Assembly: GCF_006345805.1 (NCBI RefSeq)
Contig: NW_021824066.1
Location: forward strand, 1 to 19,994
DNA length: 19,994 bases
DNA from: Octopus sinensis
Lineage: Eukaryota
Direction: 5' to 3'
Positions 11,061-11,424 of this stretch are shown piece by piece (the first letter of the stretch is position 1; every line of letters starts with the position of its first letter). The notes under the pieces were generated by a model. The model had not been told where the DNA came from. It did not search any database and saw nothing but the letters and a program-made list of their open reading frames with translations. The position numbers and the translations under genes are program-made.

Positions 11061-11276
11061 CTATTCTGTATTTAAGGGATGAGGAATTACGTATATTATT
11101 TACATTATTTACATTATTTACATTATTTACATTCGACGGATATTTGTCCTCATCTTGTTTGTTGTTATCACAACGTTTCGGCTGATTTACCCTCCAGGCT
11201 TCTTCAGGTGTCTTGTGGAAATTTCGAACCTGGGTTCTCATTCCTAAGGTATTTTTTGATGTTGTTGTTGTTGTTG

Positions 11277-11324
<48 letters not shown>

Positions 11325-11424
11325 TATTATTATTATTATTATCATTATTATTATTCAGGTCACTGCTTGGAATCGAACTCGGAATCTTGGGGTTAGTAGC
11401 CCGCGCTCTTAACCACTACGCCAT
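11061..11424 (-). mobile_element. tRNA-headed element with (AAT)n spacer and HHR-containing PLE-like tail
   Basis: Minus strand has box A TGGCGTAGTGG (11413-11423), box B GAGTTCGATTCC (11369-11380), (AAT/AAC)n, a body with an HHR at 11167-11212, then (AATGTAAAT)n. Confidence 0.75.
11167..11212 (-). ncRNA. minimal type I hammerhead ribozyme
   Basis: GACAC CTGAAGA a GCCTG gagggtaaat CAGCC GAAA CGTT GTGAT. Confidence 0.65.

Follow-up and report, generated by a model that had tools for sequence, protein, structure and literature searches.

A tRNA-like head with A and B boxes in the terminal repeat of a Penelope-type retrotransposon of Octopus sinensis

The window, i.e. the whole 19,994-nucleotide stretch of Octopus sinensis DNA analysed here, contains at 11063-11751 a Penelope insertion of standard layout, with inverted arms, a one-sided tail and an 8-bp target duplication. 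The left copy of the duplication, AAATTTCT, was read by hand (11055..11062, plus strand), and the right copy, AAATTTCT (11752..11759, plus strand), is the 8-mer with which it flanks both arms. The first arm is read on the minus strand. It opens with a tRNA-derived head (11356..11423), aligned to tRNA positions 8-73 and situated after the ORF stop in autonomous copies, which contains an A box TGGCGTAGTGG (11423-11413, minus) and a B box GAGTTCGATTCC (11380-11369, minus) and lacks the 5' leader of the family. An (AAT/AAC)n tract of a length that varies among copies (11256..11355, minus) separates the head from the body, in which the first 60 codons of a Penelope ORF (11062..11241, minus, ATG at 11241) run in an open frame through a minimal type I hammerhead motif (11167..11212, minus, predicted cut 3' of 11172); in translation this body is still open over the 60 codons. 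The arm ends in the Penelope 'tail' (11063..11094, minus), present on this arm only and delimited by the clustering of 3' ends and the one-sided tails of inverted units.

The second arm is inverted. Its (AAT)n tract (11424..11594, plus) is joined to the head via an AT/TAT overlap, a junction type also seen in four further loci (L064, L076, L082 and L083), and is split by a later insertion into the AAT tract, the 59-bp 3' end of an unrelated non-LTR element (11505..11563, plus). Matches of 95-98% to this insert, followed by AAT repeats, occur in L003, L005, L113/L128 and L276, and the L003 copy is preceded by an ORF end bearing a restriction-like endonuclease motif; the source element is one we take to be Dong/R4-like, and two of its AAT-associated 3' ends stand in tandem at L003:2125-2354. 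The inverted body (11595..11751, plus) has neither head nor tail, is 88% identical to the first body, and carries its own hammerhead motif (11645-11690, plus), in which the 10.1-11.1 pair is an A-C mismatch. A previous sequence-only reading had placed the A box, the B box, the (AAT)n tract and the minimal hammerhead exactly where we find them. The features of its element are real, but they make up only half of the unit, as the inverted arm, the target duplication and the 59-bp insert had been missed.

Other repeats are visible in the window. A 182-bp SINE-like unit is present in three tandem copies with 90% matches (5193-5747), a long hairpin-forming stretch with near-perfect inverted ends is possibly a MITE (7556-7694), and a 193-nt inverted pair, 94% complementary (2743-2935 and 19645-19837), probably represents two copies of one SINE family.

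The association of head and body recurs across the genome. A first look at the 2.7-Gb genome gave 1569 candidates for the body, and in 29 other body-selected loci a head in the same orientation lies upstream in 17 (once across an insertion), is present only in the inverted arm in seven, and is missing from five. Genome counts of the head rest on exact patterns such as a 34-nt piece, which has 500 exact matches (reversed control, 0). In the first 70 of these 500 as listed, the body follows within 450 nt downstream of the head in 56, and an inverted arm lies upstream in 43; the linkage that the sequence-only reading had asked to be counted genome-wide is therefore general. It might be supposed that a tRNA SINE and a Penelope fragment had inserted separately into one AAT microsatellite, and the AAT tract does attract other insertions, such as the 59-bp insert in the window and those in further loci. 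However, order and spacing are constant in dozens of loci, and a single duplication flanks the whole unit, so that a chance neighbourhood is excluded.

The ends of copies point to the machinery responsible. The 3' ends form two clusters 30-40 nt apart, most inverted units have a tail on one side only, and duplications of at least 6 nt flank 33 of 41 inverted units compared with 28 of 205 mismatched controls, which together match the Penelope pattern as given in the accessible text of PMC8557442. The proposal that a Penelope RT/GIY-YIG enzyme made the insertion is thus borne out by the inverted arms, the one-sided tail and the 8-bp duplication. The two window arms (11063-11262 and 11595-11751) differ in a subfamily marker at ribozyme position 7, A in the first and T in the second. 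This marker is equal in both arms of 21 of 26 inverted units, where 56% would be expected if the arms were independent. Most inverted units are copied from one template, and a minority, the window's included, may join cDNAs from two RNAs. In one inverted unit (L074) the flanks are reverse complements of each other over at least 30 nt, i.e. host DNA has been duplicated in inverted form.

The head, as judged from its sequence, is tRNA-derived, with A and B boxes. Aligned with the genome's own tRNA-Arg(ACG) it matches in 46 of 71 columns with a score of 59.5, where the maximum in 2000 shuffles is 41.5. Arg(ACG) is the best of eight anticodon classes (30 tRNA sequences compared), a ranking biased by the use of a pattern resembling the head to retrieve the Arg gene, and a different SINE head family reaches an equally good score. 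Neither ARAGORN nor Rfam calls the head. Its source may have been a tRNA gene directly or a tRNA gene by way of a SINE. Elsewhere in the genome (G000:C2:3121912-3145718), tRNA-Arg(ACG) genes are repeated in tandem about 70 times or more, at intervals close to 206 bp.

The parent of these copies is a coding element. The repeating unit consists of an ORF (RT, then GIY-YIG), a stop, 34 nt, the head, (AAT)n, the hammerhead body and the tail, which passes directly into the following ORF, the frame of which opens within the repeat. This order was read first from L010, where a GIY-YIG-type ORF end lies immediately 5' of the head. The head stands 3' of the ORF stop, mostly 34 nt on, in 27 of 29 other loci retrieved with the L010 endonuclease piece, in 27 of 30 loci picked up by a foreign protein query, and in 24 of 30 selected by an ORF 34-mer. 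At the other end, body and tail in direct orientation are placed just 5' of where the ORF starts in 23 of 30 rows (a count that contains duplicates, four rows being one duplicated locus and two more also a single locus), with the head included in five loci, and the repeat's ATG frame crosses the ribozyme and enters the RT ORF in L102, L107, L108 and L124. The ORF matches RVT_1 with 35.8 bits (cut-off 29.6) and, weakly, telomerase RT (E 0.0014); its endonuclease resembles GIY-YIG look-alike clusters at 0.96-0.97 in the Atlas, and the Pfam scan gave no GIY-YIG match.

Each hallmark of an EN+ Penelope-like element is present: a single ORF with RT plus a GIY-YIG at its C terminus, direct and inverted pseudo-LTRs (pLTRs) from partial tandems, a 30-40 nt tail at one end with a target duplication, and a hammerhead motif in the pLTR. 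No Zn-finger-like RT-EN linker was noticed by eye in the translations, a point on which Penelope/Poseidon elements are recognised in the accessible part of PMC8557442. The autonomous element with matching terminal repeats that the sequence-only reading had called for therefore exists, and the body is its terminal repeat. We hold it as close to certain that head, tract and ribozyme together are the pLTR of an autonomous Penelope element, apparently of the Penelope/Poseidon type, and not a new class of SINE.

No intact or active copy was found, every copy read being broken by stops or frameshifts. Family copies are about 5.7% diverged, and a rough estimate, built on the 500 exact matches, a fraction of 1/63 heads that are exact and an EN count of 343, gives about 10,000 heads. 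Family sequence is present in sequencing runs from six organisms. Penelope-type RT/endonuclease ORFs were also met in contigs of bacterial genome bins (Poribacteria, Buchnera and others; L401-L410), and these contigs most likely come from the host animal. The genome has a second Penelope-type family, much younger and presumably Neptune-like, represented by L300, L309, L314, L319 and others; many of its copies are 97-99% identical and some have open frames of at least 700 codons, its 3' region is T-rich, and no A/B box or hammerhead match was seen in the eight checked.

Compared with Penelope/Poseidon elements as described in the available text on Anolis PAc (PMC11167929), D. virilis (PMC2377424) and PLE structure (PMC8557442), the family shares a single ORF in which RT is followed by a C-terminal GIY-YIG, pLTRs in direct and inverted orientation, a one-sided tail of 30-40 nt, 5' truncation, and a pLTR hammerhead overlapping the ORF start. 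Unlike those accounts, the pLTR here holds the tRNA-derived A/B-box head and the (AAT)n tract, no intron is seen, the head is where 5' ends accumulate, and the unit is without TTTT.

The hammerhead conforms to a known type. In the window it reads, on the minus strand, stem I GACAC (11212-11208), core CTGAAGA (11207-11201), an extra A (11200), stem II (11199-11180), GAAA-CG-TT (11179-11172) and GTGAT (11171-11167); stem II is interrupted by a C-C mismatch and stem I by an A-A mismatch. Across 205 copies, the per-column counts show stems I and II of 5 bp each, the core CTGA(T/A)GA, the extra A, G10.1-C11.1 and a palindromic ACGT. These counts show the four traits diagnostic of minimal metazoan PLE hammerheads in the accessible text of PMC4209133, namely an extra base between 9 and 10.1, G10.1-C11.1, a palindromic 15.2-16.2 and a 5-bp stem I. 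As also described there, solo motifs and close opposite-strand pairs arise from truncated PLEs, and the octopus family shares this; the ribozyme itself is no different from the hammerheads of that account, and both window copies have stem mismatches. Within the catalytic core, only the free position 7 shows a common variant (T/A, 103 versus 62), and both forms preserve the protein frame. The stem covariation that had been proposed as a check did not appear, since copies of this single family show decay alone apart from the T/A split at position 7, and a count of 36 of 161 copies with an intact core is an underestimate caused by an alignment artefact. An Rfam search returned no hammerhead match, the window arms fold no better than shuffles, and predicted folding of monomer and dimer did not yield the active hammerhead fold. 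The PAc ribozyme needs protein, and insertion in vitro is possible without a ribozyme, according to the available part of PMC11167929. The predicted ribozyme of the octopus family would probably need a dimer or the element's protein, and does not set the ends of copies. Indeed, the cut site is neither end of the copies, whose ends fall at head and tail; for this reason, and as the body is coding, a retrozyme or Sm-alpha-type repeat was rejected.

In its proposal that the insertion belongs to an independent non-autonomous SINE lineage, transcribed by Pol III, with short copies that are transcribed anew and moved in trans by a Penelope enzyme, the sequence-only reading was consistent with several observations. 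In 52 of 70 cases the head has no upstream ORF and a near-fixed 5' end, the A and B boxes are intact, and the schistosome SINE-like elements reviewed in PMC6765202 provide, in the text available, a precedent for a Pol III promoter combined with a hammerhead. But the loci do not contain a SINE head with a tail borrowed from Penelope, as the head resides in the autonomous element's own terminal repeat; the usual diagnosis of a tRNA SINE, a head absent from the autonomous partner with the 3' tail alone shared, fails here on the same ground. Nor did a comparison of seven sites in 52 short and 59 ORF-linked copies disclose a short-only variant or subfamily, both haplotypes being present in both groups; one of the seven differs in frequency, with p=0.037 uncorrected in a small sample. 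The ribozyme cut, moreover, does not coincide with copy ends, and the template of Anolis Poseidon, in the accessible part of PMC11167929, needs ORF sequence beyond the RT start sites, which by analogy solo repeats would lack. A separate SINE lineage is accordingly improbable.

The schistosome Sm-alpha and Sj-alpha elements resemble the family in a Pol III-type promoter followed by a hammerhead, but in the accessible text of PMC6765202 they are non-coding, often tandem, and released as monomers by the ribozyme, whereas here the sequence belongs to a coding element as its end repeat, and copies do not end at the cut. The TRIMp3 elements Cassandra, Helenus and Ajax likewise have a small-RNA-derived Pol III promoter within a terminal repeat; in the part of PMC10886601 available they are short non-autonomous LTR elements, in contrast to the autonomous, 2.5-kb, Penelope-type family described here. 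The unusual feature is the tRNA-derived head fixed in the terminal repeat of a protein-coding retrotransposon, for which we found no description. Full-text literature, with few subscription papers covered, returned no Penelope element with a tRNA-derived promoter, and Repbase, Dfam or repeat-library supplements may hold the family. The structure is not described in the accessible text of the three cephalopod papers among PMC2377424, PMC7229834, PMC13282606, PMC8967140 and PMC6962438.

Within the pLTR of the autonomous element, the 5' ends of copies bear on whether the tRNA-like promoter is used, and are the first of three indirect lines in favour. In D. virilis Penelope the start site and an internal promoter lie within the pLTR (PMC2377424, in the part available). 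Of the 70 head-selected copies, 52 start at most 14 nt upstream of the head 34-mer, compared with 2 of 30 for an ORF 34-mer control (Fisher p=1.9e-10), and 22 of these 52 starts, at 11-14 nt, fall on the G that belongs to a 6-nt leader and precedes the A box by about 13 nt. Such a distance from start to A box is typical of SINE starts. The leader is also part of the region's strongest local hairpin (-12.2 kcal/mol, z -2.2), which could produce a 5' pile-up without any transcription start. The second line is that, genome-wide, 1543 matches reach the leader, of which 722 switch to fold-back letters (a call that is one letter apart from the natural sequence and counts some palindromes twice), 248 retain seven more natural letters, and one uses the longer natural hairpin. 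Further, 18 of the 70 heads and three of five upstream repeats reach beyond the proposed start, indicating that longer RNAs also serve as templates, which read-through of tandem units would permit. Raw RNA reads of one organism (about 6% of each run, 85% likeness) are about equal on both strands, and their depth tracks the DNA profile (repeat 600-2200, 5' part of the ORF about 1-20) with no pile-up at start or end, so that they are uninformative on the promoter.

The third line of evidence is the scarcity of TTTT, the Pol III stop signal. No TTTT occurs among the column-commonest letters over the 2.56-kb unit, from which G4 runs are likewise absent. In 103 overlapping natural ORF stretches 11 TTTT runs are observed against 76.7 expected, a deficit that rests on one sequence as the copies share ancestry; on one ORF length it amounts to 0.4 runs against 2.5 expected, with a borderline median p of 0.07 over 50 tilings and p 0.005 only with a looser null. 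No depletion is seen in 73 other open frames (248 T-runs versus 224), in the second Penelope-type family of the genome (205 versus 174) or in 27 distant relatives, 27-62% identical (126 versus 131), and in 21 of the relatives listed no A and B box pair was found downstream. The closest relatives are 62-70% identical, and a look for their DNA context found none. Like the missing G4 runs, the headless relative L364 counts against a Pol III start, having no T4 run in 666 codons, where 2.8 are expected. Codons ending in TT are under-used (TTT 160 versus TTC 375, whereas GAT, at 636, exceeds GAC, at 424), and the non-coding repeat also lacks TTTT, unlike the 3' regions of most relatives as judged by eye. 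Fixed 5' ends and the absence of TTTT both fit a Pol III start, which at the head we consider likely.

These observations have to be weighed against an ordinary, Pol II-transcribed Penelope family in which a tRNA or SINE head is a passenger in the 3' UTR and the border hairpin stalls or folds the cDNA to give the 5' pile-up. The autonomous partners of Pol III-promoter elements are argued to require Pol II in the text of PMC10886601 available. Against a passenger head, the 5' peak lies at the position expected of a Pol III start by the spacing known in SINEs, leader fold-backs number hundreds where the longer natural hairpin is used a single time, and the loss of TTTT extends to the non-coding repeat and to the specific under-use of TT-ending codons. 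This explanation is a doubtful one that nevertheless deserves serious consideration.

If the Pol III start is used, the cycle can be sketched from the parts described. Transcription would begin at the G of the 6-nt leader, about 13 nt ahead of the A box, and Pol III would read through a unit free of TTTT stop signals. By analogy with Anolis Poseidon, in which two internal RT start sites generate the tail (PMC11167929, in the part available), reverse transcription would start internally at either tail edge, about 270 nt from the RNA 5' end, and would copy back to that end, often folding back on the GCCC/GGGC leader or joining a second cDNA. With an internal start so placed, the parent RNA alone would give SINE-looking copies, and the outcome would be thousands of them, each short, its 5' end fixed and its arms inverted, tailed on one side and accompanied by a duplication of 8-13 bp. 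Pol III RNAs are uncapped and usually short. That the captured tRNA promoter drives an uncapped Pol III RNA of 2.5 kb, or a multimer of it, with a TTTT-purged ORF, and that this RNA serves as both mRNA and template, is a tentative possibility.

This possibility has implications for the view, held in the accessible text of PMC10886601, that SINEs and Pol III-promoter TRIMs are non-autonomous and that autonomous retrotransposons need Pol II. If true, a Pol III-driven Penelope would be an exception to the need for Pol II, and would allow a direct test of the translation of long Pol III RNA. In either case the fixed 5' ends would be a genomic readout of the Penelope RNA start, a poorly known part of the cycle, and even on a cautious reading thousands of 'tRNA SINE' annotations can be the end repeats of Penelope elements.
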